In this document: one piece after another, positions 7,831-44,695 of the stretch | Layout of the letters: each line of letters starts with the position of its first letter | How positions within the stretch are numbered: position 1 is the first letter of the stretch | Assembly: GCA_021786355.1 (NCBI GenBank) | Contig: JAJYNK010000011.1 | Coordinates: 1 to 52,322, forward strand | DNA length: 52,322 nucleotides | Direction of reading: 5' to 3' | From: a bacterium | GTDB lineage: Bacteria; Patescibacteriota; Minisyncoccia; UBA6257; UBA9933 | Position numbers and translations under genes: made by a program | Notes under the pieces: model-generated | Seen by the model: the letters and a program-made list of their open reading frames with translations, nothing else | Database searches by the model: none | What the model was told of the DNA's origin: nothing

Positions 7831-7862
7831 CTCGTTTATCCCACGATCGTTGGATAAACGAG
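7831..7862. promoter_or_regulatory. 32-bp palindrome with ACGATCGT core, upstream flank of cassette A
   Basis: CTCGTTTATCC-c-ACGATCGT-t-GGATAAACGAG, 30/32 symmetric. It lies just downstream of a TATAAT at 7819-7824 and 24 nt before the ATG at 7886. Confidence 0.7.
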
Positions 7863-7885
7863 TAAAAGAAAATTAAATAAAAAAC

Positions 7886-8461
7886 ATGAAAAAAGGAGAA
7901 ATTACCTTAAAAGCTCTCGAAGCCATAGGAGATACCGCAATAAATTTTTTTGACCTTATGGTTGTAATTATGGGCTCAAGGTACGGCGCCTCGTATGGCG
8001 AACTGGATTTTGAATTTAGAAAAAGACAATTCGAAAGAGAAGTAGAAGCAGGAAAACAATTAGAGAAGCAAAAATTTTACGACTTGGTTTATCGGCTTAA
8101 AAAGCAGGGATTAATACAAGAGAAAGAAAGTAAATTTAAATTAACGAAATTAGGATTTGAGAAGTTAAAATTTTTAAAAGAAAGGAAAAAAGAAAGTTTG
8201 CCAACTAATGATTTCCCTGCGGAAAAAGGAAATAATTTTTGTATCGTGATTTTTGATGTTCCTGAAGCCGAAAGAAGAAAAAGGGACTGGCTAAGAGATT
8301 CCTTGGGTCATCTCGGATTAAAAATGATTCAAAAAAGCGTTTGGATCGGCAAAGTAAAAATACCCAAACCATTTTTGAATAGTTTGTTTAAATTAAAAAT
8401 GTTGGATTACGTAGAAATTTTTGAAATTACCAAAGCCGGTAGTTTAAAGCACGTAGTCTAG
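7886..8461 (+). CDS. winged-helix + Cas2/PaaX-like ferredoxin-fold domain protein (paralog A)
   Basis: C-terminal block FCIVIFDVPEAERRKRDWLRDSLGHLGLKMIQKSVWIGK…YVEIFEITKAGSLK has the Cas2/PaaX pattern (beta1 hhhhFD[IV]PE, helix, QKSVW). The N-terminal half has wHTH-like YRLKKQGLIQEKESKFKLTKLG. Paralogs are at 36328 and 46648. Confidence 0.6.
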   Translation: MKKGEITLKALEAIGDTAINFFDLMVVIMGSRYGASYGELDFEFRKRQFEREVEAGKQLEKQKFYDLVYRLKKQGLIQEKESKFKLTKLGFEKLKFLKERKKESLPTNDFPAEKGNNFCIVIFDVPEAERRKRDWLRDSLGHLGLKMIQKSVWIGKVKIPKPFLNSLFKLKMLDYVEIFEITKAGSLKHVV

Positions 8462-8492: not shown

Positions 8493-8534
8493 AAAAACTC
8501 GTTTATTCTACGATCGTAGAATAAACGAGTTTTT
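8493..8534. promoter_or_regulatory. 42-bp perfect palindrome with ACGATCGT core, downstream flank of cassette A (also terminator-like)
   Basis: AAAAACTCGTTTATTCTACGA|TCGTAGAATAAACGAGTTTTT. Each half is the exact reverse complement of the other, and the A5/T5 flanks give bidirectional terminator geometry. Confidence 0.75.
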
Positions 8535-9914: not shown

Positions 9915-10005
9915 AATAGTTAACTGGCAAATTGGCTGATTTGTTGATTGGTTAATCGGCTTAGTGTAAGCTCAAAGTTAACTATTCAACTAATTAATTC
10001 TAATA

Positions 10006-10629
10006 ATGAACGACCCCACTATTTTTATTTTTCAATTAATAACGCTTATTGCTTCGGTAATAATCCATGAAGTTTCTCATGGCTTTGTTGCGTATCGGTT
10101 GGGCGATTCAACGGCTAAAGATATGGGCCGGCTGACTTTGAATCCTTTTAAACATTTGGATTTTTTCGGTTCGTTTCTTTTTCCCCTGGTTTTGTTTTTG
10201 TTCGGCAGTCCTATTCTATTTGGTTGGGCCAAGCCGGTTCCTTATAATCCGTATAATTTAAAAAATCCGCAAAGAGGCGGAGGGTTAATAGCTGCTGCCG
10301 GGCCTTTAAGCAATCTGTCTGTGGCGGTTATTTTTGGATTTATTTTAAAAATTTTTTCAATGAGCGGCATAGTTGATTCGCCCCTTTTTTTATTTTTGCA
10401 GATAATTATTTTAATAAATATTTCTCTTGCAATTTTTAATCTTGTTCCAATTCCGCCGCTCGACGGATCAAAAATTTTATTCGCTTTTCTTCCCCCGCGT
10501 TTTTTAAAAGCTCAAATTTTCTTGGAGCAATACGGTTTCATGTTTCTGCTTTTATTTATTTTTTTCGGAATCAGACTGATTCAGCCGATTATTTCCAAAA
10601 TATTTATGTTTTTAGGCGGCGGCCTTTAA
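10006..10629 (+). CDS. site-2 protease family (peptidase M50) membrane metalloprotease
   Basis: An HEVSH zinc motif in TM1, a later NLVPIPPLDG motif, and a polytopic architecture. Confidence 0.8.
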   Translation: MNDPTIFIFQLITLIASVIIHEVSHGFVAYRLGDSTAKDMGRLTLNPFKHLDFFGSFLFPLVLFLFGSPILFGWAKPVPYNPYNLKNPQRGGGLIAAAGPLSNLSVAVIFGFILKIFSMSGIVDSPLFLFLQIIILINISLAIFNLVPIPPLDGSKILFAFLPPRFLKAQIFLEQYGFMFLLLFIFFGIRLIQPIISKIFMFLGGGL

Positions 10630-17907: not shown

Positions 17908-19162
17908 GAATAAGCAACGAATTATTTTTTTATTGGTTATAATTTTGGTTTTGGCCGTTATCGGCGGTATTTTTGTCGCGCCTAAGTGGCTTGGCGCAAA
18001 ATACAGGCCTTGGCGTCTGGGGTTGGATCTTGTGGGCGGCAGTCACCTAGTTTACGAGGTTGATATGTCCAAGGTTGATTCAAAAGATCAAGATTCGGTT
18101 TTGAGCGGCCTTCGAGATGTTATTGAAAAAAGAATCAATCTTTTTGGCGTTAGCGAGCCTAGAGTCACTTCTGCCCAGCAGGGCGATTCTCACAGGCTTA
18201 TTGTCGAACTTGCCGGAATAAAAGACGTTTCCGAGGCGGTGAAACAAATAGGGCTTACTCCATTTTTGGATTTCAGGGAAGTTGTTCAAAAGCCGTCCCA
18301 GGGGAGCACGTCCACAATTCTGAAGGACGAAAACGTGGATTTCGTCCCCACTCAATTAAACGGCCGTTATGTTAAAAACGCTCAGCTCGATATTGACCAG
18401 ACTACCGGCGCAACGCAAGTGGCCATTCAGTTTAGCGACGAGGGCGGCAAAATTTTTGAAGAGTTAACCGCTAAAAATGTGGGCAAACAGCTGGCGATTT
18501 TTTTAGATAATAATTTAGTCAGCGCGCCCACGGTCAGGGAAAAAATTTCCGGCGGCAAGGCCGTAATTACCGGCAATTTTACTCTTGATGATGCAAAGCA
18601 AATGGTTCAAAGGTTCAACGCCGGCGCTCTTCCGGCTCCCATAAATTTGATAAGCCAGCAAACCATCGGCGCCAGTCTTGGCCAGGACTCTCTGAAAAAA
18701 GCGCTTTACGCCGGTTTTATAGGCACGATTTTGATAATAATTTTCCTTATATTTTATTACCGCAAATACGGAGTTTTCGCCGCTTTTGCGCTTTTTATTT
18801 ATATAGTTTTAACCGCCGCCATCTTTAAGATTTTTGTTGTTATGTCTCTTGCGGGCATTGCCGGATTTGTTTTATCAATAGGTATGGCGGTTGACGCCAA
18901 TATTTTGGTTTTTGAAAGAGTAAAGGAAGAAATGAAAAAGGGTTTGCTTGAGGCGCAAGCCATTGAAGAGGGTTTTAAACGGGCTTGGGCTTCCATTCGC
19001 GATTCGAATATTTCCACAATCATCACCTCAATAATTCTTTACGAGTTTACTTCCAGTTTTGTTAAGGGATTTGCTCTTACGCTTTTAATCGGAGTTTTAA
19101 TGAGTATGTTTTCCGCGATAACAATCACTAAAACATTTTTAAGGGCATTCGTAAGAAAATGA
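17906..19162 (+). CDS. secD: protein translocase subunit SecD
   Basis: Typical SecD periplasmic domain and C-terminal 6-TM region (GIAGFVLSIGMAVDANILVFERVKEE). Confidence 0.95.
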   Translation: MNKQRIIFLLVIILVLAVIGGIFVAPKWLGAKYRPWRLGLDLVGGSHLVYEVDMSKVDSKDQDSVLSGLRDVIEKRINLFGVSEPRVTSAQQGDSHRLIVELAGIKDVSEAVKQIGLTPFLDFREVVQKPSQGSTSTILKDENVDFVPTQLNGRYVKNAQLDIDQTTGATQVAIQFSDEGGKIFEELTAKNVGKQLAIFLDNNLVSAPTVREKISGGKAVITGNFTLDDAKQMVQRFNAGALPAPINLISQQTIGASLGQDSLKKALYAGFIGTILIIIFLIFYYRKYGVFAAFALFIYIVLTAAIFKIFVVMSLAGIAGFVLSIGMAVDANILVFERVKEEMKKGLLEAQAIEEGFKRAWASIRDSNISTIITSIILYEFTSSFVKGFALTLLIGVLMSMFSAITITKTFLRAFVRK

Positions 19163-19166
19163 AAAA

Positions 19167-19200
19167 TGTAAATATCAAAATGAAAAATGACAATGTAAAA
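19167..19200 (+). repeat. AT-rich intercistronic repeat, copy 1 (secD|secF spacer)
   Basis: TGTAAATATCAAAATGAAAAATGACAATGTAAAA is identical over 34 nt to 44696-44729. A partner arm TGTCATTTTTATTTT lies downstream in the same spacer. Confidence 0.85.
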
Positions 19201-19295
19201 TCTAAAATAACTGACCCCAAAATTATTTAATGTTAAAATAATTTTGAATTTTTATCTGTCATTTTTATTTTTAATTTTTTAATTTTAAATTTTCT

Positions 19296-21493: not shown

Positions 21494-22819
21494 ATGACAG
21501 GTAATTTTCTTCTTGATTTAGAACTTAATTTTTTTAAGAGCCTAGGCGTTATTTTATCTTACGCGGGGTGGTTTATAATTCCCGCTATTTTATTCGTTCT
21601 TTTCTGGGAGTTAAGACTTCGTTTTATCCGCCGGGCTTTTATAAAAAAAATGGATTTTAAGATAATGGAAGTTAAAATCCCAAAAAATATTTTTATAACC
21701 GCAAAAGCGATGGAGCAAATTTTTGCGGCGATGTATTCCATTTACTCTTTCGGCGCTTTTAAAAATTGGGAAAAATACGTTTTGGGAAAAGTTGAAACAT
21801 TCGCTTCTTTTGAAATTGAAGGATCTTCCGCCGGCGTCCGGTTTTATATTTATCACCCGGCGCGACTGAGAAAACTTATCGAAGTGGCGATTTATGCCCA
21901 GTATCCCAACGCGGAGATACACGACTCTTTTGATTACGCAAAATCCACGCCGATTCATTTGCCAAACAGCGAATACGAGGTTTGGGGAACAAACTTTATT
22001 TTAAACAGGGAAAATTATTATCCCATAAAAACCTACGCGTATTTCGAAGAAACAGAAGAAGAAAAAAGAATCGATCCGCTGGCGCACATTGTCGAAGTTA
22101 TTTCTAATTTAAAGGAGGGAGAAAGAATATGGTACCAGGTGATAATCGCCGGCACCGGAAAACCGACGGGAAACGACTGGCAAAAAGAAGGGGAGGATAA
22201 AATTTCCGAAATAGCCGGCCGTAAAAAAGAAGACAAAAATAAATTTAGTGTTTGGGGCGAGTTTAATATGTGGGTTGCCAATTTTTTCAAAGCGCCATTT
22301 ACCGATGTTAATTGGGGCGAAGAAAAAAAGGAAGAAAAGCCAGCTTCTAAATTCCTGACTCCCGTCGAACAAAATATAGTAAAAGCCATTAACGGAAAAA
22401 CCGCGAAACTGGGATTTGAAACCGTTATCAGGATTATTTATATAGACCAAAAAGAGGCTTTTACTCCGTTAAACATCGCTTCAATACTGGGCACTTTTCA
22501 GCAATTTGGAGCCTCTGATATAAATTCTTTCAAGCCTGGCGGGGAAATAACGGGAGTGGGTAATTTTTTATCCAAAATCAGCTCCCGCTATAAAAAAATG
22601 ATGGAATTTACAAAAAAACGGGCGATTTATTTTGCTTATATAAATCGCAGATTTGGCAAAACAAATTGGGAAAAAAAGGAAAAATTTCCTGTTTTAAATA
22701 CAGAAGAACTCGCGACTATTTATCACTTCCCGAGCTTGACGATTGAAACTCCTCAGCTCAGGCGTTTGGATACTAAAAAAGGCGGCCCGCCAAAAGGACT
22801 GCCAATAATAAAAATGTAA
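21494..22819 (+). CDS. membrane-anchored hypothetical protein, upstream partner of the T4SS coupling-protein-like ATPase
   Basis: 441 aa with an N-terminal TM helix (GWFIIPAILFVLFW). No motif I can name. Same strand as the ATPase gene, 108 nt upstream of it. Confidence 0.5.
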   Translation: MTGNFLLDLELNFFKSLGVILSYAGWFIIPAILFVLFWELRLRFIRRAFIKKMDFKIMEVKIPKNIFITAKAMEQIFAAMYSIYSFGAFKNWEKYVLGKVETFASFEIEGSSAGVRFYIYHPARLRKLIEVAIYAQYPNAEIHDSFDYAKSTPIHLPNSEYEVWGTNFILNRENYYPIKTYAYFEETEEEKRIDPLAHIVEVISNLKEGERIWYQVIIAGTGKPTGNDWQKEGEDKISEIAGRKKEDKNKFSVWGEFNMWVANFFKAPFTDVNWGEEKKEEKPASKFLTPVEQNIVKAINGKTAKLGFETVIRIIYIDQKEAFTPLNIASILGTFQQFGASDINSFKPGGEITGVGNFLSKISSRYKKMMEFTKKRAIYFAYINRRFGKTNWEKKEKFPVLNTEELATIYHFPSLTIETPQLRRLDTKKGGPPKGLPIIKM

Positions 22820-22889
22820 AATTTAAAAATCAAAATGTAAAATTTTGGCAATCGTCTACGATGGTATTAATGAACTTTAAATTTTAATC

Positions 22890-22912
22890 TGCCATTTTTA
22901 ATTTTGATATTT
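22890..22912 (-). repeat. AT-rich intercistronic repeat, copy 3 (inverted orientation)
   Basis: The reverse complement AAATATCAAAATTAAAAATGGCA matches AAATATCAAAATGAAAAATGACA (19171-19193) at 21/23 positions. It pairs with a degenerate forward arm at about 22826-22851. Confidence 0.65.
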
Positions 22913-22927
22913 AATATTTAAATTTAT

Positions 22928-24430
22928 ATGGATGACATAACAGTAATCGGAAAAACAAATTTTAGAAATCAAGAAGTTAAATTTGGCATCAAAGCCCAGG
23001 ACAGAAGAAGGCATATGTATGTTATCGGCCAAACCGGAACCGGCAAAACGACCTTGCTTGAAAATATGGTTATTGACGATATCCGCGCGGGTCGCGGCGT
23101 GGGCATTATCGACCCTCACGGAGAATTTGCCGAAAAAATTTTGGAATTTATTCCCGAAGAGCGCGTTGATGATGTTATTTATTTTAACCCGGCCGACGTA
23201 GATAATCCGATCGCTTTCAATCCTTTGGAAAAAGTAGGAATGGAATATCGGCACCTTATCGCATCCGGCATAATGGGCGTCTTTAAAAAGATTTGGGTTG
23301 ACGCCTGGTCGGCCAGAATGGAATATATTTTGAACAATACCTTGTTGGCGCTTTTAGAGTTTCCGGAATCAACTCTTTTGGGGATAATGAGGATGTTTTC
23401 GGACAAAGATTACCGTAAAAAAATCGTTGACAATGTCCAGGATCCCGTTATTAAAGCTTTTTGGGAAAATGAATTCTCCCGCTATTCCCAGCGTTTTGAA
23501 GTGGAAGCGGTGGCGGCCATTCAAAACAAAGTCGGCCAGTTTGTTTCTAATCCTTTAGTAAGAAACATCATTGGCCAAACCCATTCAACGATTGATTTGA
23601 GAAAGATAATGGATGAAGGAAAAATCTTAATCGTTAATTTGTCAAAAGGAAGGATAGGCGAGGATAACTCTGCTCTTTTAGGGGCGATGCTGATAACCAA
23701 GCTTCAGATGGCGGCGATGTCTAGAATTGACATTCCCGTGGATAAACGCCGAGACTTTTATCTTTATGTGGATGAGTTTCAGAATTTTTCAACCGAATCA
23801 TTCGCCAATATTTTATCGGAGGCCAGAAAATACGCCCTAAATTTGACTTTAGCGCATCAATATATAGAACAGCTTGATGAAAAAGTCAGGGCGGCTATTT
23901 TCGGAAACGTAGGCACGGTGATTCTTTTTAGGGTCGGAGCTTTTGACGCCGAGTTTTTAGAAAAGCAATTTATGCCCGAATTTGAAGTCAATGATTTGGT
24001 TAATCTTCCTAATTACCATATTTATTTAAAGCTTTTAATAGATGGCGTTTCCGGCAAGCCGTTTTCAGCCGCCGCGCTGGCGCCGATTTCAATGATCGGT
24101 GAATCGTATTCGGACGTTCTTATCGAAAATAGCCGGAGAAAATACAGCGTTGCAAGATCGATTGTTGAAGAAAAAATCGCTTCCGAGTGGAGCGCCGGAG
24201 TTGCTTCCGCCCAGGATAAAGTATTTCGCCGCGAAGAGAGGCCAGTTAGGGAAGTTTTAGATGGAGGGGGGATTATAAAAAATGAAGCGATGCGAATAAA
24301 AAAAGACGTTATCCAAAAAGAAAGGCCCAATGTGGATATCGGGGATTTGCAGAAATCCATCAGAGAATCGCTGGAAAATAAAACAGAGGAAGGAAAACCT
24401 TCAGCAGAAGAAAAGAACCCAGAACAATAG
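22928..24430 (+). CDS. TraD/VirD4-like (type IV coupling protein-like) P-loop ATPase, soluble form
   Basis: Walker A (VIGQTGTGKTT) and Walker B (FYLYVDEFQNF) motifs. The layout matches TraG/TraD/VirD4-type DNA-translocating NTPases, but there is no N-terminal TM segment. Confidence 0.75.
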   Translation: MDDITVIGKTNFRNQEVKFGIKAQDRRRHMYVIGQTGTGKTTLLENMVIDDIRAGRGVGIIDPHGEFAEKILEFIPEERVDDVIYFNPADVDNPIAFNPLEKVGMEYRHLIASGIMGVFKKIWVDAWSARMEYILNNTLLALLEFPESTLLGIMRMFSDKDYRKKIVDNVQDPVIKAFWENEFSRYSQRFEVEAVAAIQNKVGQFVSNPLVRNIIGQTHSTIDLRKIMDEGKILIVNLSKGRIGEDNSALLGAMLITKLQMAAMSRIDIPVDKRRDFYLYVDEFQNFSTESFANILSEARKYALNLTLAHQYIEQLDEKVRAAIFGNVGTVILFRVGAFDAEFLEKQFMPEFEVNDLVNLPNYHIYLKLLIDGVSGKPFSAAALAPISMIGESYSDVLIENSRRKYSVARSIVEEKIASEWSAGVASAQDKVFRREERPVREVLDGGGIIKNEAMRIKKDVIQKERPNVDIGDLQKSIRESLENKTEEGKPSAEEKNPEQ

Positions 24431-24438
24431 GAATAGTT

Positions 24439-24820
24439 CTGTCATTGCGAGCGTAGCGAAGCAATCTCTTTTCTTTCCGAGAATATTTTGTTGTTCTATG
24501 GATAAGCAATATTTTGTATATTTTATGACCAATAAAGCTAATACAGTTATTTATGTAGGCATCACCAATAATTTAAAAAAGAGGGCTCATCAACATAAAA
24601 ATAAATTAATGAATGGCTTTACAAAAAAGTATAATGTAAATAAACTTATTTATTACGAAATATACGATAATGCGTATAACGCGATTTCAAGAGAGAAACA
24701 AATCAAAAGCGGCTCAAGGCAGAAAAAGATTAACTTGATTAATAAAATAAATAAAGAATGGAAAGATTTATATTATGAATTGTAAAGATTGCTTCGTCGC
24801 TTCGCTTCTCGCAATGACAG
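24439..24820. mobile_element. GIY-YIG gene cassette bracketed by imperfect inverted repeats
   Basis: The left repeat is CTGTCATTGCGAGCGTAGCGAAGCAATCT (24439-24467). The reverse complement of the right repeat (24787-24820) is CTGTCATTGCGAGAAGCGAAGCGACGAAGCAATCT. An extra partial copy AGTCATTGCGA is at about 24832-24842. Confidence 0.6.
24498..24785 (+). CDS. GIY-YIG nuclease family protein (small, UPF0213-like)
   Basis: YFVYFMTNKANTVIYVGITNNLKKRAHQH…REKQIK carries the GIY…YVG, R and E motifs. The start at the internal ATG (24498) is preferred, because the upstream extension overlaps the previous CDS and the repeat. Confidence 0.85.
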   Translation: MDKQYFVYFMTNKANTVIYVGITNNLKKRAHQHKNKLMNGFTKKYNVNKLIYYEIYDNAYNAISREKQIKSGSRQKKINLINKINKEWKDLYYEL

Positions 24821-25484: not shown

Positions 25485-26687
25485 ATGGATGCAAAAGATT
25501 TAAAAAAATCAGTTGTTTTTGTGATGATGTCCGGAGGAGTAGATAGCTCCGTGGCTGCTTTTTTGTTGCAAAAACAAGGATATAAGGTTATCGGCTGTTT
25601 TATAAGGGGTTATAATGTTGACGGCTGTCAGGAAAAAGAATCTGAAGACGCCCGCCGGGTTGTCGAATATTTGAACATTCCTTTTTATGTGGTTGATTTG
25701 GAAAATGAATATAAAAAACTCGTGGTTGATTATACTGTCAGGTCTTATAAAGAAGGAATTACTCCCAATCCGGACGTGATGTGCAATAAAGAAATAAAAT
25801 TCGGATTGTTTTTTAAAAAAGCGATTGAATTGGGAGCGGATTATGTGGCAACCGGGCATTACGTGAGGCTTGGTTTTCGGGATATTTTTCGCGGAACCGG
25901 CCGTCTTCTTGCTCCAGCGGCAAGAAGCGGCCTTGGCTCTCGGCTTATTCGCCCCGCCTACGGCGGGGGCCAAGCCGAATTAGCCTCCGAGACATTCCGC
26001 TCAAAAACCCCCGAAAAACTCGCCAGTTTTTATTTAAGGGAGGCCAAGGATAAAAACAAAGACCAATCTTATTTTTTGTGGACTTTAAAACAAAATCAGC
26101 TCAAACGTTGTTTGTTCCCCATCGGCGATTATGAAAAACCGGTGGTAAGAAAAATCGCCAAAAAAGCCGGGCTGCCTACGGCCGAGAAAAAAGATTCTCA
26201 GGGGATTTGTTTTTTAGGAAAAGTTCCGATGGAGGTTTTTTTAAAAAAATTCATTTCACCCAAAAAAGGAAAGATTGTTAATTTGGAAGGAAAAAAAATA
26301 GGCGAGCATCAGGGAGTTTATTTTTATACCATTGGCCAGCGGCATGGGCTCGGCATTGCCGGGAAGCGTCCTTTTTATGTGGCGGAAAAGGATGCGGTTA
26401 ATAATGTCATAAAAGTTGCCCAAGGCAGCGATGACCAAAACTTATTTAAAAAAGAAGCCTATTTAAAAGCGGTTAATTGGATAAGTGGAGAAGTTCCCAA
26501 AGAAAAAATGGAGGTTTTGGCAAGAGTAAGATACAGGCAGCCGCTTTCTCCCGCTTCCCTTTATAAGCTAAAAGCTGACAGCTATAAGCTAATTTTTGAT
26601 TCTAGTCAAAAATTCGTGGCCCCTGGCCAGTCAGCGGTATTGTATAATAAGAAAGGGGAAATGCTGGGCGGCGGCATCATAAGTTAG
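25485..26687 (+). CDS. mnmA: tRNA 2-thiouridine(34) synthase MnmA, carrying a ~145-nt GC-rich in-frame insert
   Basis: PP-loop (MSGGVDSSVAA), NPDVMCN, ATGHY and KDQSYFLW motifs. The GHYVR-to-KDQSYF spacing is about 46 aa longer than in E. coli MnmA as I recall it. Confidence 0.92.
   Translation: MDAKDLKKSVVFVMMSGGVDSSVAAFLLQKQGYKVIGCFIRGYNVDGCQEKESEDARRVVEYLNIPFYVVDLENEYKKLVVDYTVRSYKEGITPNPDVMCNKEIKFGLFFKKAIELGADYVATGHYVRLGFRDIFRGTGRLLAPAARSGLGSRLIRPAYGGGQAELASETFRSKTPEKLASFYLREAKDKNKDQSYFLWTLKQNQLKRCLFPIGDYEKPVVRKIAKKAGLPTAEKKDSQGICFLGKVPMEVFLKKFISPKKGKIVNLEGKKIGEHQGVYFYTIGQRHGLGIAGKRPFYVAEKDAVNNVIKVAQGSDDQNLFKKEAYLKAVNWISGEVPKEKMEVLARVRYRQPLSPASLYKLKADSYKLIFDSSQKFVAPGQSAVLYNKKGEMLGGGIIS
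25874..26018. repeat. GC-rich nested-hairpin element inside the mnmA CDS
   Basis: Terminal pairing TTTTCGGG…GCGGAA / TTCCGC…CCCGAAAA. Internal hairpins are CCGTCTTCTTGC-N6-GCAAGAAGCGG and GGCTT-ATTC-GCCCCGCC-TACG-GCGGGGGC-C-AAGCC. Confidence 0.7.
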
Positions 26688-26699: not shown

Positions 26700-27518
26700 A
26701 TGATTATCTTGCTCTACGGGCCGGACAATTACAGGCGAAGTCAAAAATTAAAAGAAATAAGCCAAAACTATGGACAGAGGCAATCCCTTTTTTCTTTGGA
26801 GAAATTTGATTTTGAAGATAACGAAGAGTTTTACCGCTTCAAGGATTTTGCCGGCCAGCAACTTATTTTTGAAGGAAAAAAACTTGCCGTATTAGAAAAT
26901 GCTTTTAGTCTTGGAGAGGAAAATTCAGAATCGTTCAAAGAACTTTTAAAAGAAAATATCAAAAACGAAAACGTGATTTTAATTATTTCCGACAGCCGCG
27001 AACTTCCCGACGAATTTAAATTTGTTTTAGACGAGGCGATTAAAATTCAAGAATTCACTGAACTTGACGAGGGGAAAATGAAATTTTTCATAAGAAATGA
27101 AGCGAAGAAAAGAGGAGTGGAATTCAGTCTTGCCGCGGAAAATTTTCTTTCCGCTTTTTTCAAAAACAATACTTGGGGGTTGATTACCGAAATTGATAAG
27201 CTTCAATCTCTTTATCAAGAGCCCGCTAAAATAGAAGTCAGCGATCTTGAAAGAGCCGGAGATTTTTTTAAATCTTCCGACATCTATAATTTTATAAACG
27301 CTGTTTCTAATAAGGGAAGTTTGTCTGAAAAATTAAAAAACTTGGAAAGCCTTTTTTTGAATCACGAAGAACCAGCCATGATTTTTAATTTCCTGGCCGC
27401 TAACCGCTTTTTGAGCTTTGATTTATTAAAAAAAATGGCCGACTACGATGTTTTGGTAAAGTCGGGCCGAATAGATTACGAAACCGCGCTTTTGGATGTC
27501 TGTTTGCTCCGCATATAA
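26700..27518 (+). CDS. holA: DNA polymerase III delta subunit-like (HolA)
   Basis: The N-terminus (IILLYGPDNY), the ~270 aa size and the helical C-terminus fit short HolA forms. Similarity is weak. Confidence 0.5.
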   Translation: MIILLYGPDNYRRSQKLKEISQNYGQRQSLFSLEKFDFEDNEEFYRFKDFAGQQLIFEGKKLAVLENAFSLGEENSESFKELLKENIKNENVILIISDSRELPDEFKFVLDEAIKIQEFTELDEGKMKFFIRNEAKKRGVEFSLAAENFLSAFFKNNTWGLITEIDKLQSLYQEPAKIEVSDLERAGDFFKSSDIYNFINAVSNKGSLSEKLKNLESLFLNHEEPAMIFNFLAANRFLSFDLLKKMADYDVLVKSGRIDYETALLDVCLLRI

Positions 27519-27555
27519 AAATTTATCTTAAACAGGCTCACTCTTACTCATTCTG

Positions 27556-28095
27556 TTATTCAATCAAACCGAATTCCCTAAAAGATTGTTGATAAACTTT
27601 TAGAACATTGACTGCCTCTTCAAAAGTAATTTTAAAATCTTCTTCGTTGGCTCTAGCGGCGATTTTGTGGGCTTCCAATAGTTCTTGGCTATTAGTTATT
27701 TTTTCCGATGTTAAATGACTTAAACGTTCTTCCAGATCTTCTCCAGGATATGCGCCTGCTTTTAAAATCTCATCTAAAATTTTATCCGCCTCGGTTAAGG
27801 CCGCCTTTATCTGCTTTTCGTCTTTTGTTTCAAGGCGTTTTTTGATTGTTTTCCAGGCTTTTACGGAGTATCGTTTTCCAAAATCCCGAAGCCCAAAATA
27901 TTTAACTTCCAGAGCCGCCACTTTTTCATCGAAGAGATTGAGTTTTATAATATAAAAAATTACCAGCCAAAAAAGAATAGCCGATAAGATAAAAGCTATA
28001 AAATTTAACAGCCAAAGCTTGTCTAGATAAAAATTAACCAAATTGGCAAAAAACTCCGCGACAAATTTATTAATAGATAAAATTAACGTGTCCAT
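27556..28095 (-). CDS. hypothetical membrane-anchored protein
   Basis: 179 aa with one or two N-terminal TM helices followed by a charged helical domain. No motif recognised. Confidence 0.45.
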   Translation of the reverse strand: MDTLILSINKFVAEFFANLVNFYLDKLWLLNFIAFILSAILFWLVIFYIIKLNLFDEKVAALEVKYFGLRDFGKRYSVKAWKTIKKRLETKDEKQIKAALTEADKILDEILKAGAYPGEDLEERLSHLTSEKITNSQELLEAHKIAARANEEDFKITFEEAVNVLKVYQQSFREFGLIE

Positions 28096-28200: not shown

Positions 28201-29639
28201 TCATATAATTTTCCAATTTCTAAAATATCATTTTCTTTAAAATGTTTGCCTATAAGCTGAAACCCCACAGGCGGGTTCTCCATGGGCCTTGTCGAAATGG
28301 ATATTGCCGGAAGTCCCGCTAAGTTTGCCGGAATGGTAAATATATCCGAAAGATACATTTTCAGAGGATCATCTGTTTTTTCGCCGAAATGGAAAGCCGG
28401 AGTGGGAGAGACCGGAGTTAAAATAACATCAACTCCGCCAGCCGACGGATCAAACGCTTTGTCAAAATCTTTTCTAATTAAATTTCTTACTTTTTGGGCT
28501 TTGGCGTAATAAGCGTCGTAATATCCGGAAGACAAAACAAATGTTCCCAAAATGATTCTTCTTTTAACTTCTGGGCCAAAGCCCTCCCCCCGCTGTCGGA
28601 AATAAATTTCTTTCAAGGTTTCAGTTTGCGATCCGCGGCCCGCTATTCGCGCGTAGCGTATGCCGTCGAATCTGGTTAAATTAGCGCTTACTTCCGCGGG
28701 CATAATAATATAATAGCAAGAAAGAGCGTATTTAGTGTGCGGTAAACTTATTTCTTTAAATTTTATACCGGCTTTTTTTAGCGACTCAATTGCTTCGCTA
28801 ATGGCTTTTGTCGTCTGGTCGTCCAGCCCTTCTTTTATGAAGTATTCTTTTGGCAACCCGATTGTTAAGTTTTTTGTTGTTGTAGGTTGTAGGTTGTCGG
28901 TTGTTAGTCGTTGGGATGTCGCGTCCATCGGGTCAAATCCTTTTATAGCGTTAAATAATATTTCCGCGTCTTCGACTGTTTTGGTTATTGGCCCTATCTG
29001 GTCTAAACTTGAAGCCATCGCCATCAGTCCGTAGCGAGAAACTGCTCCGTAAGTTGGTTTTAGCCCTACTACTCCGCAAAAGCTTGCCGGCTGCCTTATT
29101 GAGCCGCCCGTGTCTGACCCAAGTCCTGCCACAGCCATATCTGCCGCTACAGCGGCCGCGGAACCGCCCGAGGATCCTCCCGGCACTCGGCTTACGTCGC
29201 GAGGATTTTTTGTTTTTTTAAAAGCGGAATTTTCCGTTGACGAACCCATGGCGAATTCGTCCATATTGGTTTTGCCTAAGAAAATAGCGCCCTCATTTTT
29301 TAGCTTTTTTATAACCGTTGCATCATAGCTGGCTTTGTAATTTTCTAAGATTTTTGAAGCCGAAGTGGTAATTTCATTCTCAATCAAAATATTATCTTTT
29401 ATTGCTAAAGGAATTCCCGTTAGAGGGGCGAGTGTTTCTCCTTTTGCCTTTTTTATATCAGCCTCACCGGCTTTTTTTAAGGCGGATTCTTTTAGAAGAG
29501 AGATGTAGGCGTTTATTTCCGGATCTTTTTTTTCGATGTGTTTAAAGTATTCTTCGGCAATTTCAAACACGGAGAATTTTTTATTTTTAAGACCTTCTTG
29601 AAATTTTTTAATAGTCAAATTTGTGAGATTCATATGCAT
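28191..29639 (-). CDS. gatA: Glu-tRNA(Gln)/Asp-tRNA(Asn) amidotransferase subunit A
   Basis: Amidase signature (GGSSGGSAAAVAA…GSDTGGSIRQPA), downstream of gatC. Confidence 0.95.
   Translation of the reverse strand: MHMNLTNLTIKKFQEGLKNKKFSVFEIAEEYFKHIEKKDPEINAYISLLKESALKKAGEADIKKAKGETLAPLTGIPLAIKDNILIENEITTSASKILENYKASYDATVIKKLKNEGAIFLGKTNMDEFAMGSSTENSAFKKTKNPRDVSRVPGGSSGGSAAAVAADMAVAGLGSDTGGSIRQPASFCGVVGLKPTYGAVSRYGLMAMASSLDQIGPITKTVEDAEILFNAIKGFDPMDATSQRLTTDNLQPTTTKNLTIGLPKEYFIKEGLDDQTTKAISEAIESLKKAGIKFKEISLPHTKYALSCYYIIMPAEVSANLTRFDGIRYARIAGRGSQTETLKEIYFRQRGEGFGPEVKRRIILGTFVLSSGYYDAYYAKAQKVRNLIRKDFDKAFDPSAGGVDVILTPVSPTPAFHFGEKTDDPLKMYLSDIFTIPANLAGLPAISISTRPMENPPVGFQLIGKHFKENDILEIGKLYESR
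28881..28915. repeat. heptamer micro-array inside the gatA CDS
   Basis: TGTAGGT TGTAGGT TGTCGGT TGTTAGT CGTTGGG on the + strand. It encodes the low-complexity segment …RLTTDNLQPTT… of GatA. Confidence 0.7.
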
Positions 29640-30684: not shown

Positions 30685-31605
30685 TTATTTTCCAATATCG
30701 AAAATTTTAAAAGCGTTTTGAGTTGTTTGCTCGCTCATTTTTTCCAGTGAAATGTTTTTTATTTTCGCCATTTTTTGGGCAGTTTCTTTTATGTAAATCG
30801 GTTCGTTTCTTTTGCCTTTATGCGGTTCGGGCGCGACATACGGGGCGTCGGTTTCCAAAAGAATTTTTTCCAAAGGAATAAATTTTATAATTTCGTCAAA
30901 TTGGCGATTGTAAGTGATTAACCCTCCGAATGTGAAATAAAAACCCATTTCCAAAAGAGTTCTAGCGTCTTCAATGGTTCCGGTAAAAAAATGGATTATC
31001 CCCGGAGGAGTATTTAGGAGTTGGGAGTTAGAACTTAGGATTTGAATTAAGTCGGAGAATGCTTTTGTGGCGGCACCACGCTGAGCGTGGTTGGAGTCGC
31101 GCTCGGCGCGACAATGGATCATTAGAGGTTTATTTAGTTCTTTGGCCAGTTTTATTTGTTGAACAAATGTATTTTTTTGAATTTCTTTCAAATTTTCAAA
31201 TCTTAAATCGTCATTTTTATTTTTTATTTTTAAATTTTTAATTTGAGCGGAGCGATAGTAGTCCAACCCGCATTCTCCGATCGCCACGACTTTTTCGTTT
31301 AAGGCTATTTTTTTATAAAATTCATAATCAAAATTTTCACTTCTCGAATTAAAACCGTTTCCTCCGCCGATTTCTTGCGGATCTAAATGAATGCTGTTGG
31401 TGTGGATCGGGTGAAGCCCGACTGCGGCGTAAACGCCCTCAGAGTATTTATTCGCTAATTCCACCGCTTTTTCAGAGGTGTCTTTTTGGCTGCCTGCGTT
31501 TACTGTCCAGATATTGCTGTCCAGAGTTCTCTTTATAACTTCTTCGCGGTCCTTATCAAAGGCCGAAAATTGAAGGTGGGTATGGGAATCGAATAAGAAA
31601 GGCAT
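30685..31605 (-). CDS. tatD: TatD-family metal-dependent hydrolase/DNase
   Basis: FDSHTHL, ECGLDY, MIHCR and ETDAPY motifs. The start at the second ATG (31605) is preferred, because the upstream 11 codons lie in a repeat array. Confidence 0.88.
   Translation of the reverse strand: MPFLFDSHTHLQFSAFDKDREEVIKRTLDSNIWTVNAGSQKDTSEKAVELANKYSEGVYAAVGLHPIHTNSIHLDPQEIGGGNGFNSRSENFDYEFYKKIALNEKVVAIGECGLDYYRSAQIKNLKIKNKNDDLRFENLKEIQKNTFVQQIKLAKELNKPLMIHCRAERDSNHAQRGAATKAFSDLIQILSSNSQLLNTPPGIIHFFTGTIEDARTLLEMGFYFTFGGLITYNRQFDEIIKFIPLEKILLETDAPYVAPEPHKGKRNEPIYIKETAQKMAKIKNISLEKMSEQTTQNAFKIFDIGK
31076..31112. repeat. pair of GC-rich hairpins inside the tatD CDS
   Basis: CCACGC-TGA-GCGTGG (31076-31090) and GTCGCGC-TCG-GCGCGAC (31096-31112). 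Together they encode the extra segment …AERDSNHAQRGAAT… right after the conserved IHCR motif. Confidence 0.6.
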
Positions 31606-36327: not shown

Positions 36328-36897
36328 ATGCGAGGAGAAAAACGGTTAAAAATTTTGGAATTTCTTTCAGAATCAACCCGCACAGCAGGAGATTTATTTT
36401 CTATTTTTACAATGCCGTACGGAACATCACTTTATAGGGGATTGAAAACAGCGGAAAGATATCATCAAGAACGAGAAAATAGAGAGATAGAAAGGAGAGA
36501 ACGGCTAAATTTCAACGATCTAATTTATAGATTAAGAAAAGACGATCTCGTAGAAGAATTTGGGGAAAAAAGAAAAAAATTTTTTCGCCTAACAGATAAG
36601 GGAAAAAATAGTTTGGCAAAGCTTGAGTTAAGAATATTAACTGATAATTACGAGATAAAAAGGGATAATTTAGTGAAAATTGTAGTTTTCGACATACCAG
36701 AGAAAAAAAGGAAAATGCGCGATTGGATCAGAAGAATATTAGTAAATTTGGAATTTAATATGCTCCAAAAAAGTGTTTGGATCGGCAAAACAAAAATTCC
36801 GGAAGAATTTATTAAACAACTTAGGAATCTAAACCTCTTGTCTTATGTGGAAATATTTGAGATAAGTAAAACTGGAAGTTTAAAGCAAATAAAATAA
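36328..36897 (+). CDS. winged-helix + Cas2/PaaX-like ferredoxin-fold domain protein (paralog B)
   Basis: VKIVVFDIPEKKRKMRDWIRRILVNLEFNMLQKSVWIGKTKIPEEFI…YVEIFEISKTGSLKQIK. Clear paralog of 7886-8461 and 46648-47232. Confidence 0.6.
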   Translation: MRGEKRLKILEFLSESTRTAGDLFSIFTMPYGTSLYRGLKTAERYHQERENREIERRERLNFNDLIYRLRKDDLVEEFGEKRKKFFRLTDKGKNSLAKLELRILTDNYEIKRDNLVKIVVFDIPEKKRKMRDWIRRILVNLEFNMLQKSVWIGKTKIPEEFIKQLRNLNLLSYVEIFEISKTGSLKQIK

Positions 36898-37224: not shown

Positions 37225-37482
37225 ATGGCAAACCAAAAAGAATATATTAGAAATCGCGCGGATTCAAACATAAGCAAAATCATTATTGACCGCGATCTTT
37301 GCATAGGCGCGGCATCTTGCATTGCCGTTTCCGGCTCCACATTTGAGTTGGATAACGAAAATAAAGCGGTGGTAATAGGAGCCGACACGGCGGACGATGA
37401 AACTTTAAAAATGGCCGCCGAATCCTGCCCCACTAAAGCAATTTTGCTTTTTGACAAAGAAGGTAAGCAGGTTTATCCATAA
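37225..37482 (+). CDS. small ferredoxin (single [4Fe-4S]/[3Fe-4S] type)
   Basis: DRDLCIGAASCIAV…ESCPTKAI: a CxxxxxC…CP ferredoxin pattern. Confidence 0.72.
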   Translation: MANQKEYIRNRADSNISKIIIDRDLCIGAASCIAVSGSTFELDNENKAVVIGADTADDETLKMAAESCPTKAILLFDKEGKQVYP

Positions 37483-37486
37483 ATAT

Positions 37487-37626
37487 TTTAAACAATAATA
37501 TTCTTTCGCTACCGTTCAGCCTCCCAGCGAGCGGCTTCACTGGCGCCGCTCCTTCGCTCGGTCGCCTATGGCGACCACCGTGCCCGCTCAGTCGCGGAGC
37601 CGCGCTCAAGAACATTATTGTTTAAA
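37487..37626. other. GC-rich hairpin element bounded by AT-rich 17-bp inverted repeats
   Basis: TTTAAACAATAATATTC (37487-37503) pairs with GAACATTATTGTTTAAA (37610-37626) at 16/17 positions. The 106-nt GC-rich core has hairpins GAGCGG…CCGCTC and GTCGCC-TATG-GCGAC. Confidence 0.6.
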
Positions 37627-37641
37627 ACAACATAAATTAAA

Positions 37642-38901
37642 ATGGAAAAATATAAGTATGTAATTGTGGGCGGGGGAGTTGCGGGCTTTACGGCGGCTGA
37701 AACATTGCGACAAAAAGACGTAAGCGCCACGATTGCTGTTATAAACAGCGAACCGTACGCCTTATATTCGCGTGTGATGTTGTCAAAGCCCGACTTTTTT
37801 TTGGGCAAAATTCCTTTTGATAAAGTTTGGATGAGAGGCCAGGATTGGTACGAGAAAAACAATATAACTTTTTTTGGCAGTAAAACAGCCGCGTCGCTTG
37901 ATGCCGATAAAAAAATTGTAAAACTATCCGATGGCTCGGAATTAGGCTATGAAAAACTGCTTATTGCCACCGGAGTTTGCGCCAGAAAATGGGGCATTCC
38001 CGGATCCGAAAGAGAGGGCGTTTATTATTTGCGCACCATTGACGACGGAAAGAAAATAATGGAGGCGATAAAATCCGCAAAGCGCGCCGTCACTATCGGC
38101 GGAGGGTTTATTAGTTTTGAAATGGCGGATTTGTTTGCTTTGGCGAAAATAGATACAAGTGTTGTTATTAGGGAAAATTATTTTTGGGAGCCGACTTTAG
38201 ATGAAGCCTCCGGCAAAATGATTGAAAAAGTCCTTACTGGGAGCGGCGTTAAAATAATAAACAACGCCGAAGTCCAGGAAGTTGTAGGCGAGAATAAAGT
38301 TGAGGGTATTGTTTTAAAAGACGGCAGGAAAATAGAGTGCGATATGGTTATTTGCGGAATCGGAGTAGCTTGCGATTTTAACTGGTTTGCTTCATCGGGA
38401 ATAAAAACAAACCGGGGAATTTTAGCGGATGAATATCTTCAAACCAATTTGCCTGACGTGTGGACTGCTGGAGACATTGCCGAATACAACGACCTGCTTT
38501 TGGAAGAAAATATCCAGCTTGGCAACTGGGTGAATGCCCATGAGCAGGGAAGGATTGCCGGGTTAAATATGGCCGGCGTTCACGAGCCGTTTAAATTCGT
38601 TTCGTTTTATACGACTCAAGGAATGGGGATCTCCGTCGCTTTTGTCGGAGATACCAGGCCCGGCCAGGACAGAATAATAATCAAGCGCGGTTATCCGGAA
38701 ATAAATTCCTACGCCCGCATAATTATTGTTGGCAAAGAACTTGTGGGCGCGACTTTAATAAACAGAACCAGTGAGTTATCGGTAATCGCCAAACTTATTG
38801 AAAATAATATTGACGTTTCTCAAAAATATAAGGAACTCGAAGACCCGAATTTTGATTTGAAAGGGCTTTTAAAAACAGAAGTAAAAATTATTCAGTTATA
38901 A
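37642..38901 (+). CDS. FAD-dependent pyridine nucleotide-disulfide oxidoreductase (ferredoxin/rubredoxin reductase-like)
   Basis: An N-terminal GGGVAGFTAA dinucleotide fold, a second Rossmann motif (VTIGGGFISFE) and GDIAE. Confidence 0.8.
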   Translation: MEKYKYVIVGGGVAGFTAAETLRQKDVSATIAVINSEPYALYSRVMLSKPDFFLGKIPFDKVWMRGQDWYEKNNITFFGSKTAASLDADKKIVKLSDGSELGYEKLLIATGVCARKWGIPGSEREGVYYLRTIDDGKKIMEAIKSAKRAVTIGGGFISFEMADLFALAKIDTSVVIRENYFWEPTLDEASGKMIEKVLTGSGVKIINNAEVQEVVGENKVEGIVLKDGRKIECDMVICGIGVACDFNWFASSGIKTNRGILADEYLQTNLPDVWTAGDIAEYNDLLLEENIQLGNWVNAHEQGRIAGLNMAGVHEPFKFVSFYTTQGMGISVAFVGDTRPGQDRIIIKRGYPEINSYARIIIVGKELVGATLINRTSELSVIAKLIENNIDVSQKYKELEDPNFDLKGLLKTEVKIIQL

Positions 38902-41770: not shown

Positions 41771-43573
41771 TTATAATATTTCGTTTAATTGTTTTGCAAG
41801 TTCAACGACGTCAAAAGGCAAAGAGTCGTATTTTAAAATTTTATTTTCAATGTTAATTCCAGTTTTTTCGCGGATTATTGAAGCCAGTTGTCCGGAGCGG
41901 TTATTTTCAACAATAATTACTTTTTTTGCGTTTTTTAAATTCTCCGCCACCTTCTCCGTGTCAAACGGCGACATCCAGAGTATTTGCAAAAATTTCGGTT
42001 GATTTTTCAAATATTTTGCCGCTTCCAAAACAGCGCCTTTTGTCGAGCCCCAGAAAACAACGATATTTTTGGATTTTGGATCACCGTAAAATTTCACGGT
42101 TTCATATTTTGAAAAATCTTTTTCCAATTGTTTTAATTTTGAAAAACGCTTGTCGCCCATGGCTTTTACCATTTTCGGGTCTTCGGTTGAAATTCCCTCT
42201 TCGCTGTGTTCGTAGCTGGTGACTTTTATAACCGCGTCCGGCGTTCCCGGATATGCCATCGGCGATACTCCGTCTTCGGTTATTTGATAACGCTTATATT
42301 CGCTGTTAATTTTTTCGTCGATCTTCCCCCTTTCAACGGTGATTTCATTCGAGTTAAAAATTACTGTCGATGAGTTTTCCGATAAGTGTTTGTCCAAAAG
42401 CACAATTGCCGGCATCTGGTATTTCCAAGTCAAATTCAAGGCGTCCGCCCCTGCTTTAAAAGCTTCTTCCGGATCTCCGGGCGCGATTACTATTCGTGGG
42501 AATTCTCCGTGGCCTGAATTAATAATCCATTTTAAATCTCCCTGGCTGGTGTGGGTTGGGGAGCCGGTTGCCGGCGCCTGTCTTTGCGAAACCGCGATGG
42601 CTATCGGCGTTTCAGACATCCCAGCCAAAGCGAACGCTTCCTGCATAAGCGCGAATCCGCCTCCGGCTGTGCCTATCGCGGTACGCTTTCCTGCGTAAGC
42701 AGCGCCGAGCGCCATATTAATAACTGAAATTTCGTTTTCCGGATGTATTACTTTAAAAGTTTTTTCTTTCTCCGACGCTTGTGGTCGGTCCGACGACTCC
42801 GACGAGTGTCGGACTCCGTCGGAGAGTCCCGATCCCTCTGGGCGTCGGGACTGATTTTTCGCCAAATAATGCAAAATTGAAGTTGACGGAGTCATTGGAT
42901 AGCCGATATAAAAATCAAGCCCTGCTGCCAAAAGTCCTTTGGCAAAAGCGGTATTTCCGTCCGCCAGTTCCTTTCCTTTATCTCCACCGTGTTCCATTCT
43001 TCGGGAGTGTCGGAACCCGAGTTTTTCCAAATATTTATATCCTTTTTCCGCCAATGTTATGTTTATCTCATATCCCTTTTCTTTAAAAACCCGACGTAAA
43101 ATTTGGTCCATTTCATCAAAGGGCAAATCTAATAAATAACAAACAGCGCCGAGAGCCACAGAAGTCCGGGTTATTGCCGGAGCGTTTGATTCCTCCGCTG
43201 TTTTTACCATTGGAAGCAGTACTGCGTTTTGGCCAAACATTTTTAAGTCCTCGGCGTCGAATTTATCGGAAAAAACAACCGCTTCGGCGTTCAAATCGTT
43301 TTTATGAAGATGCATTGTTTCGTCGTTTAAGGCGATTAAAACGTCTATTTTTGAATAATCATTGTAAATTTTTTCTTTGGAAAAACTGATGCGCGAAAAA
43401 TTATGCCCGCCTCGAATAAGCGACGGATAATCAAAAGAAACAAAAACTTCAAAGCCGAGCTTTGTAAGAAATTGTCCCAAATTCGTGCCGGCTTCGCGCA
43501 CGCCGTCTCCGGCTGCTCCGCCAATGGCAACCGTAAAAATATTAGGGGGTTGATTTTTCTTTTTCCAGAACAT
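41771..43573 (-). CDS. 2-oxoacid:ferredoxin oxidoreductase alpha subunit with fused gamma domain
   Basis: An N-terminal gamma-type motif (IGGAAGDGVREAG) followed by the alpha domains. It abuts the beta gene with no gap. Carries an 84-nt GC-rich in-frame insert. Confidence 0.88.
   Translation of the reverse strand: MFWKKKNQPPNIFTVAIGGAAGDGVREAGTNLGQFLTKLGFEVFVSFDYPSLIRGGHNFSRISFSKEKIYNDYSKIDVLIALNDETMHLHKNDLNAEAVVFSDKFDAEDLKMFGQNAVLLPMVKTAEESNAPAITRTSVALGAVCYLLDLPFDEMDQILRRVFKEKGYEINITLAEKGYKYLEKLGFRHSRRMEHGGDKGKELADGNTAFAKGLLAAGLDFYIGYPMTPSTSILHYLAKNQSRRPEGSGLSDGVRHSSESSDRPQASEKEKTFKVIHPENEISVINMALGAAYAGKRTAIGTAGGGFALMQEAFALAGMSETPIAIAVSQRQAPATGSPTHTSQGDLKWIINSGHGEFPRIVIAPGDPEEAFKAGADALNLTWKYQMPAIVLLDKHLSENSSTVIFNSNEITVERGKIDEKINSEYKRYQITEDGVSPMAYPGTPDAVIKVTSYEHSEEGISTEDPKMVKAMGDKRFSKLKQLEKDFSKYETVKFYGDPKSKNIVVFWGSTKGAVLEAAKYLKNQPKFLQILWMSPFDTEKVAENLKNAKKVIIVENNRSGQLASIIREKTGINIENKILKYDSLPFDVVELAKQLNEIL
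42769..42852. repeat. 84-nt GC-rich multi-hairpin element inside the OFOR alpha CDS
   Basis: TCTCCGACG (42769-42777) pairs with CGTCGGAGA (42817-42825). GTCCGAC (42788-42794) pairs with GTCGGAC (42808-42814). AGTCCCGA (42825-42832) pairs with TCGGGACT (42845-42852). The 28 codons encode …RRPEGSGLSDGVRHSSESSDRPQAS…. Confidence 0.7.
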
Positions 43574-44693: not shown

Positions 44694-44695
44694 AG

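Follow-up and report, generated by a model that had tools for sequence, protein, structure and literature searches.

What is a GC-rich, hairpin-forming block of about 145 nucleotides (nt) doing in the middle of an AT-rich housekeeping gene, and does it reach the protein? The question arises at the mnmA gene (25485 to 26687, plus strand) of a 52,322-nt stretch of Patescibacterial DNA (GenBank assembly GCA_021786355.1, contig JAJYNK010000011.1; hereafter the window), in which a first-pass annotation had described a discrete nested-hairpin element embedded in frame at 25874 to 26018. Fold, base composition, and a covariance model agree on such an element, and the limits given were within 2 nt of the palindrome proper, at 25872 to 26019. 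We estimate a probability of about three in four that this insert is a copy of a selfish palindromic repeat family in Patescibacteria, similar in behavior to the Rickettsia palindromic elements (RPEs), and that it is translated as a tolerated disordered loop.

The host open reading frame (ORF) encodes a 400-amino-acid (aa) MnmA, the tRNA 2-thiouridine(34) synthase, as identified from the ORF list, homologues, Pfam domains, and alignment with the Escherichia coli protein. Its homologues carry the Pfam domains PF03054, PF20259, and PF20258 and are annotated from Candidatus Wolfebacteria, Parcubacteria, and Patescibacteria, and the sequence points to a host of the Paceibacteria/Parcubacteria type whose nearest named MnmA relatives belong to Candidatus Wolfebacteria. 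Alignment with E. coli MnmA (2DER; E = 1e-85) falls into two blocks with the insert in between, where residues 147 to 154 of the 2DER chain correspond to residues 132 to 185 of the window MnmA. The spacing between the GHYVR and KDQSYFLW motifs had been put at about 63 residues, against some 17 in E. coli, and counting and alignment bear out both numbers. The insert itself amounts to approximately 46 codons for a basic, low-complexity stretch rich in Arg, Ser, Ala, and Gly, and the frame stays open across it, as had been noted. The described contrast in composition is equally real, with a GC content (100-nt windows) of 0.56 to 0.65 over 25850 to 26049 versus 0.33 to 0.45 elsewhere in the gene; the insert itself stands at 0.59 to 0.65 against a background of about 0.38. 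Folding the element, as the first-pass annotation had proposed, returned a strong structure for the 161 nt spanning the insert (-79.7 kcal/mol; z = -6.6; matched by 0 of 200 shuffles), and the complementary strand folds on a par with the sense strand (z = -6.75). At least five other runs, from mine drainage, tailings, and sediment, were assembled independently, and in these assemblies the gene contains the insert with no gap; since they agree, an assembly artifact was rejected.

The architecture of the element was resolved with a covariance model (R1) built from 30 distinct copies aligned over 155 nt. The mnmA copy matches model positions 1 to 155 with 152.3 bits (E = 2e-36) over 25869 to 26023 on the plus strand, a span that codes in frame for approximately residues 129 to 179. 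The unit (about 155 nt; palindrome, 148 to 155 nt) has the shape of a Y, with an outer stem, a junction helix, and two hairpins, all on the plus strand in mnmA. The outer stem (helix 1) pairs 25872 to 25888 with 26003 to 26019 (alignment columns 4 to 20 with 153 to 169), as seen from covariation in the alignment. The junction helix (helix 2) is formed by CGGAA at 25892 to 25896, inside the motif CGGAACCGG, and TTCCG at 25995 to 25999. Hairpin 1 (helix 3; 25899 to 25932; columns 31 to 45 with 51 to 64) has a variable stem and a conserved loop region, GCTCCAGCGGC, that translates as a recurring "..APA.." peptide. Hairpin 2 (helices 4 to 6; 25938 to 25992), likewise defined by covariation, has the conserved pairing CTCTCG/CTCCGAGA at its base and the conserved GACCAAGC inside, and its apical loop is the place of nested insertions. 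The pairing ends described earlier were recovered (TTTTCGGG/CCCGAAAA, then CGGAA/TTCCG), as were the two hairpins that they enclose, but the word "perfect" overstates the case a little, as hairpin 1 contains a 1-nt bulge.

Pairing in the stems is maintained across copies with little regard to sequence. Helix 1 differs in sequence from copy to copy, with double (compensatory) changes at all 15 of its pairs among the 30 copies, and helix 3 shows them at 9 of 13 pairs, with 96% of cells paired. Double compensatory changes occur in 38 of the 51 pairs of the RNAalifold consensus. Standard pairs fill 93.8% of cells, compared with 68.5 (±0.8)% in shuffled alignments and 35 to 46% with slid partners, and 398 double-change cells were observed versus 119 in shuffles. 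The outer and hairpin stems thus vary freely, whereas the junction CGGAACCGG, the loop TCCAGCG, CTTGACTCTCG, GACCAAGC, and CTCCGAGACATTCCG are nearly invariant and all five helix 2 pairs are the same in each of the 30 copies, an invariance that is in part (helix 2 included) imposed by the pattern with which copies were sought. One-sided changes are rare, comprising 32 G-U cells and 45 A-C cells (one conserved U-G pair excluded). Selection on a single RNA strand would be expected to let G-U pairs pass but not A-C pairs. The finding that G-U is no commoner than A-C therefore suggests that neither strand is favored, and it points to stems constrained as a DNA palindrome, with either strand able to form the hairpin.

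The first-pass annotation had noted motifs shared with an intergenic element at 2531 to 2802, and R1 establishes the kinship. It matches a second, intergenic copy at 2577 to 2730 on the plus strand (70.4 bits; E = 1e-15; full length), which is nested in a third copy at 2525 to 2807 on the minus strand (44.2 bits; E = 4e-9; outer stem CCAGTGATTTTAT/ATAAAATCACTGG). The minus-strand copy covers the full model, with its hairpin 2 loop split by a 137-nt insertion that is the plus-strand copy. This element lies between the divergent ORFs 2143 to 2508 (minus) and 2952 to 3635 (plus) and has a fold z score of -8.2. The kinship is clear only by covariance model, as a BLASTN-short search with the mnmA element against the window returned a sole match of 12 nt at 2735 to 2746. 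A weak intergenic match at 37486 to 37628 (plus strand; outer stem TTTAAACAATAATATTCTTT/AAGAACATTATTGTTTAAA), between a ferredoxin-like ORF (37225 to 37482) and an FAD-oxidoreductase-like ORF (37642 to 38901), is probably a degenerate fourth copy (23.6 bits; E = 7e-4 over the whole window with R1 filters off), giving a window total of three to four. In addition, contigs of four assemblies break within 2544 to 2802, an 89-nt unitig at 2644 to 2732 is covered approximately twice as deeply as its flanks, and a further contig, equal in depth, terminates in a repeat copy about 90% identical. The doubled depth and the copy on the second contig suggest that the same genome holds more copies outside the window.

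A minus-strand ORF at 41771 to 43573 (Pfam POR and POR_N; pyruvate/2-oxoacid:ferredoxin oxidoreductase-like) carries about 30 extra residues (RRPEGSGLSDGVRHSSESSDRPQASEKE) at 42780 to 42880; the DNA that encodes them is a GC-rich cluster of hairpins (fold z = -3.85). The motifs GACTCTC, GAGTCCGAC..GTCGGAGTC, ACCACAAGC, and GTCGGAGA in this cluster resemble the hairpin 2 half of the repeat, and the cluster, which R1 left unscored, may be a truncated in-frame copy. The GC island at 29001 to 29200 was rejected as a further element; it is simply the Gly/Ala-rich amidase signature of gatA.

The element had been presented as a feature of mnmA, a view that did not hold: it is a dispersed repeat that also resides inside many other genes. 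The covariance search for related elements that had been suggested uncovered a repeat family in intergenic DNA and in several gene families. Scanning a metagenome collection with the pattern GGAAYCGG-N(70-100)-TCCGAGRCATTCCG gave 58 loci, 36 of which are confirmed by R1 (the other 22 are chance matches), and mnmA accounts for only 5 of the 36. Besides mnmA, the in-frame hosts include genes with the Pfam domains PCRF/RF-1 (release factor), Aminotran_5, Aminotran_1_2, PMT_2, ParB, and DprA; the PMT_2 membrane glycosyltransferase holds two copies in one 610-codon ORF. Genic copies lie in either orientation, sense or antisense, and many further copies are intergenic. All sense genic copies share one reading frame (s0), which yields the same peptide as in MnmA, and the antisense copies use other frames. 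Frame s0 is stop-free in 36 of 44 copies and is kept open by about half of the intergenic ones, while every genic copy is stop-free in its host frame and has a length that fits that frame. In peptide searches, a profile of the insert peptide matched one protein, a spurious 87-aa ORF in the hisS-HIT intergenic DNA of another genome (L088), and a single-peptide search of 1.84 billion representatives matched 2 proteins, the query being too short for a census of host families. The search pattern was unmatched in viral contigs.

Several contigs carry more than one copy (three each on L119, L147, and L148; two or three each on L125, L100, and L136). At three sites the core lies in opposite orientation between the same flanks and outer arms, namely, in mnmA (L018), in the Aminotran_5 gene (L108 versus L123), and in the PMT_2 gene (L141 versus L146). 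The simplest explanation for such flipped cores would be an inversion in place between the two inverted arms. On L100, copies at 9853 to 10007 (plus) and 10023 to 10174 (minus) stand head to head, only 15 nt apart, a further sign of clustering or of insertion beside existing copies.

The mnmA site itself is filled, empty, or diverged among relatives. The 116 closest MnmA proteins with both flanking motifs include 13 with a minimal loop (26 to 33 residues), 34 with an intermediate one, and 69 with a long one (60 residues or more), and MnmA length among close relatives ranges from 339 to 574 aa. The peptide ..GTGR..APAA..LDSR..DQA.R.SETFR.K.. is shared by 40 of the 69 long inserts. Its variable residues covary in the manner of hairpin arms (RLF-APA-AKS, RLL-APA-ARS, RRD-TPA-VSR, and HKF-FPA-KNF), and the underlying DNA of the relatives has the same Y fold with other stem sequences. 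The first-pass annotation had held that sequence conservation of the insert across diverse MnmA proteins would speak against an inserted element. Such conservation is indeed found (at least 40 of 116), yet the interpretation as an element survives it because what is conserved is the nucleotide sequence, at third codon positions as well, and because mnmA is not the only place where that sequence is found. Among the matches listed for Patescibacterial mnmA in GTDB (80 loci, at most 57% identity), the loop measures 26 to 81 residues with many unrelated inserts, few carry the element, and some of the inserts are AT-rich palindromes.

Two close relatives, P0006 and P0007, lack the insert. The closest insert-less relative, P0007 (locus L084), has a 75% identical MnmA in a syntenic efp-mnmA-...-gatA arrangement with an empty mnmA site, and a repeat copy lies 850 bp downstream of that site in intergenic DNA. 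This copy is common to L147 and not found in the window: it lies in the spacer that follows the downstream neighbor of mnmA, at 4911 to 5060 in L084 and at 12048 to 12196 in L147, whereas the corresponding spacer of the window (27518 to 27565) is only about 45 nt long. Presence and absence at the downstream spacer thus run opposite to those at mnmA. The "STRFA" and "FRKQH" mnmA inserts of close relatives are diverged family members (29 to 33 bits with R1), while copies in more distant relatives are near consensus (139 to 152 bits). Purely vertical descent fits this distribution poorly, and reinsertion or conversion from other copies is likely. The "empty" hairpin-tip codons of L084 (3367 to 3456) are themselves a small palindrome (AAAGAGAGAAAATTTTTTCTCTTT), and many other Patescibacterial mnmA loops (L001 to L080) have AT-rich palindromic inserts (..KFKIQNSKF.., ..NPKSEI..). 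Palindromes in general may collect in or target the mnmA loop, or outer-stem remnants may persist there once the core is lost.

Selection on the gene and on the insert can be separated by codon position. In pairwise comparisons of six mnmA orthologues, identity at first, second, and third positions is 0.77/0.89/0.42 in the upstream flank and 0.77/0.85/0.45 in the downstream flank, compared with 0.70/0.68/0.72 inside the element, where periodicity is absent. These values indicate that the mnmA flanks are under purifying selection and remain so after the insert, and the lack of codon periodicity in the element suggests that the peptide itself is not what is conserved. In the AlphaFold2 model of MnmA (mean pLDDT, 84), residues 133 to 179 fall below 50 and the rest is mostly above 90, with the low-confidence stretch flanked by confident strands (128 to 132 and 181 to 185). 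Alignment and structure model together, as had been proposed for placing the insert, put it at a beta-hairpin tip in the catalytic domain, where it replaces a turn (E. coli residues ~147 to 154) and is predicted to be disordered.

The earlier alternative of a translated surface loop or an element removed by some mechanism can accordingly be narrowed: the loop is favored by the hairpin-tip position, the predicted disorder, the frame that is open in every genic copy, and the selected flanks, and removal left no sign. The genic copies are all open, whereas only about half of the intergenic ones are; such filtering would be expected if the copies are translated and needless if they are excised or bypassed. 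From sequence, model, and analogy, we infer that ribosomes translate straight through the insert, giving a disordered surface loop. No match was found with Rfam at gathering threshold for the window and 21 loci, and at E of ≤10 the mnmA and 2525-to-2807 elements returned chance-level matches only (E of ≥0.076 on the element); a tRNA/tmRNA scan found none. A group I or group II intron was rejected, as the element has no such core, is too small, and matched no intron or ribozyme model. Inteins possess Hint-domain splicing blocks, at least about 130 aa, and a nucleophile at their junctions. The insert, with about 46 low-complexity Arg/Ser/Ala/Gly residues predicted to be disordered, is too small to be one. 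A tRNA mimic for MnmA autoregulation was discarded as well because the loops are unlike those of anticodons and the element also occurs outside mnmA.

The case for selfish DNA rests on a repeat that is multicopy, both inter- and intragenic, found in either orientation, self-nesting, and variably present between syntenic relatives, and the repeat would accordingly behave as a nonautonomous element. One of its reading frames would be intrinsically stop-free, and copies landing in an open frame, with a length divisible by three and in a permissive surface loop, would be tolerated. In mnmA, this would produce a disordered loop of about 46 residues at the beta-hairpin tip of an enzyme that appears to be still under purifying selection. 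The stems would be kept by a need of the element at the DNA level (a hairpin or cruciform for its own propagation, or arm-to-arm homogenization) and not for mnmA, and the repeat would presumably be mobilized by an enzyme acting in trans.

Several observations weigh against this interpretation. A transposase partner did not turn up, complete genomes not having been searched for a partner insertion sequence. No conserved terminal repeat emerged: variation between copies is greatest at the ends, and the motifs that are conserved lie in the interior, unlike in a classical miniature inverted-repeat transposable element (MITE). TC..TC flanks occur at about 4 of 13 independent sites and not at the others, filled and empty pairs are too diverged to fix the junctions, and no clear target-site duplication is seen. 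A long insert in 69 of the 116 close MnmA relatives could mean a benefit at this site beyond tolerance. The conserved single-stranded motifs (CGGAACCGG, TCCAGCG, GACCAAGC, and CTCCGAGACATTCCG) and the heavy covariation would also fit a functional RNA or protein-bound nucleic acid, and the share of motif invariance imposed by the search pattern is a further caveat. Finally, three metatranscriptomes of the same study gave zero coverage of the organism, so that translation is something we infer, and RNA runs matched via the L113 relative share only one to three words.

Improbable, in our judgment, is the proposal that the Y core (the junction CGGAACCGG, the UCCAGCG loop, GACCAAGC, and CUCCGAGACAUUCCG) is a functional nucleic-acid module and not passive junk. 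It might be the recognition structure of a hairpin-directed Patescibacterial mobilization system that inserts, flips, and nests while leaving frames unbroken, or it might be a structured RNA that renders its own insertions phenotypically silent. We likewise regard as unlikely a functional structured RNA module, be it cis-regulatory, protein binding, or catalytic, that would act in mRNAs and intergenic transcripts and in mnmA would tune translation, stability, or cotranslational folding. The very strong covariation, the invariance of the junction and loop motifs across deep lineages, the stable fold (z = -6.6), and a mnmA site that is filled in most relatives, with even empty or short alleles forming small palindromes, are what such a module would explain. 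An RNA acting in its transcript is harder to reconcile with copies in both orientations relative to their host genes and flipped at the same site in three of them, with a copy nested in another on the opposite strand, and with G-U cells no commoner than A-C cells, which leaves neither strand favored. Moreover, the host genes are unrelated and share no common theme, and no Rfam family matches.

Removal of the element before or during translation, by a self-excising intron-like RNA or by programmed ribosomal bypass, would leave an MnmA without the insert. The compact and very stable structure, whose outer stem joins both ends, suits that idea, as does the general resemblance of GC-rich hairpin inserts in AT-rich genes to the bypassed segments known as byps. 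However, every genic copy is stop-free and frame compatible, which is exactly the constraint that removal would relax; antisense copies would need removing as well; and no intron or ribozyme model matched, so we give removal very little credence. The chances are slimmer still for a lineage-specific insertion selected for its peptide, for instance as an Arg-rich tRNA-binding arm, with an incidental palindrome. The insert is basic, and its motifs (GTGR..APAA..LDSR..DQA.R.SETFR.K) are kept among MnmA proteins down to 55% identity, but conservation at third codon positions equals that at the first and second, without codon periodicity. The same peptide occurs in a release factor, aminotransferases, a glycosyltransferase, and spurious intergenic ORFs, and other copies are read from the opposite strand. 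A selected peptide also fits poorly with an insert pLDDT below 50 and with the absence of the insert from P0006 and P0007.

A selfish palindromic repeat with in-frame copies has its closest counterpart in the RPEs, reportedly described by Ogata et al. in 2000 (Science 290:347) and 2002 (Genome Res 12:808). RPEs measure 105 to 146 bp and lie in frame in housekeeping genes (PMC2229807, PMC10969869), and the insert in Rickettsia gmk was shown experimentally to be translated in an enzyme that is still active (PMC2229807). Both systems consist of palindromic units of about 105 to 150 bp that fold into long stem-loops, with many intergenic and intragenic copies per genome, and both are fused in frame to conserved housekeeping genes, with a recurrent peptide read from a preferred stop-free frame, at positions compatible with the protein fold and in a bacterial host with a reduced genome and a host-dependent lifestyle. 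The features that define RPE-like behavior (a short palindrome, dispersal, in-frame stop-free hosts, and a fold-tolerated site) are thus all found in the Patescibacterial repeat. It differs in coming from an unrelated phylum, in being GC rich within AT-rich genomes, in its three-way junction with a conserved interior and highly variable outer stems, and in flipping at one site and nesting in itself. It would therefore be at most an RPE analogue, likened by behavior, for which homology is not expected.

Other known repeats resemble it in part. MITEs with ORF fusions (the 107-bp form of Correia/NEMIS, ERIC, and YPAL/RU-2; PMC2229807) are likewise nonautonomous, stably folding repeats of 100 to 200 bp, but MITE families have conserved terminal inverted repeats and usually TA target-site duplications, whereas the termini of the Patescibacterial repeat are its least conserved part. 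A classical MITE was rejected because each copy has an outer stem of its own, with all 15 helix 1 pairs varying and the invariant positions internal. With repetitive extragenic palindromes (REPs), their mosaic form BIME, and the associated RAYT enzymes (IS200/IS605-like Y1; PMC3733652, PMC1525189), it shares the importance of hairpin form over terminal repeats, covarying stems, a constraint at the level of single-stranded DNA hairpins, and palindromes that serve as targets for more insertions, comparable to the nesting seen here. REPs, however, are 20- to 40-bp extragenic sequences tagged with GTAG/CGTC, and membership in that class is ruled out by a branched, often intragenic unit of about 150 nt. 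The coding palindromes of Nematomorpha mitochondria (PMC6649704) are also hairpin inserts that leave the protein gene undestroyed, but they are organellar, long, perfect repeats with both arms coding, in contrast to a single branched unit that is always in frame. The Patescibacterial genic copies are all open and in frame, which translational bypass (T4 gene 60, byps), with its matched take-off and landing codons, would not require. The GC-cluster or "byp" inserts of yeast mitochondria, also organellar, are GC-rich islands in AT-rich genes; the ribosome skips byps, and they can lie out of frame.

A full-text literature search returned no report of such elements in Patescibacteria or the candidate phyla radiation (CPR), which is not proof of novelty. 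Judged by its sequence, the repeat constitutes, in our view, a new family of Patescibacterial palindromic repeats that are selfish, in frame, and RPE-like, and it provides no evidence for a new excision mechanism. In-frame coding palindromes, once described as peculiar to Rickettsia, would now be found in a second reduced-genome, host-dependent lineage, which suggests that small genomes with selfish palindromes arrive at them repeatedly. The repeat would explain much of the length variation of conserved Patescibacterial proteins (MnmA, 339 to 574 aa), and it is a warning for annotation and structure prediction that Arg/Ser/Ala-rich "loops" can be repeat derived. The covariance model, together with the filled, empty, and flipped sites, can be used to seek the mobilizing enzyme.

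A small plus-strand ORF directly upstream of efp (24330 to 24785) encodes a GIY-YIG nuclease domain (PF01541; E = 4e-17), and syntenic relatives have other genes in its place; any tie between this ORF and the mobility of the repeat is pure speculation. The window also contains repeats of other kinds. Perfect AT-rich palindromes of about 33 nt (CTCGTTTATCCCACGATCGTTGGATAAACGAGT and variants) at 7831 to 7863, 8498 to 8530, and 47246 to 47278 form a separate family and are possibly terminators or another small repeat. Segments of 140 to 150 nt with 74 to 77% identity recur at three distant places, in direct orientation (8310 to 8451 and 36746 to 36887) and inverted (36744 to 36893 and 46655 to 46804), and are probably paralogous gene segments. 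Recurrent, strongly AT-rich intergenic blocks (GC content, ~0.2) at 19153 to 19295, 22804 to 22925, 31191 to 31244, and 44682 to 44806 share direct and inverted repeats of 35 to 77 nt (AAATGTAAATATCAAAATGAAAAATGACAATGTAA...) and could have a promoter or regulatory role or constitute another repeat family.

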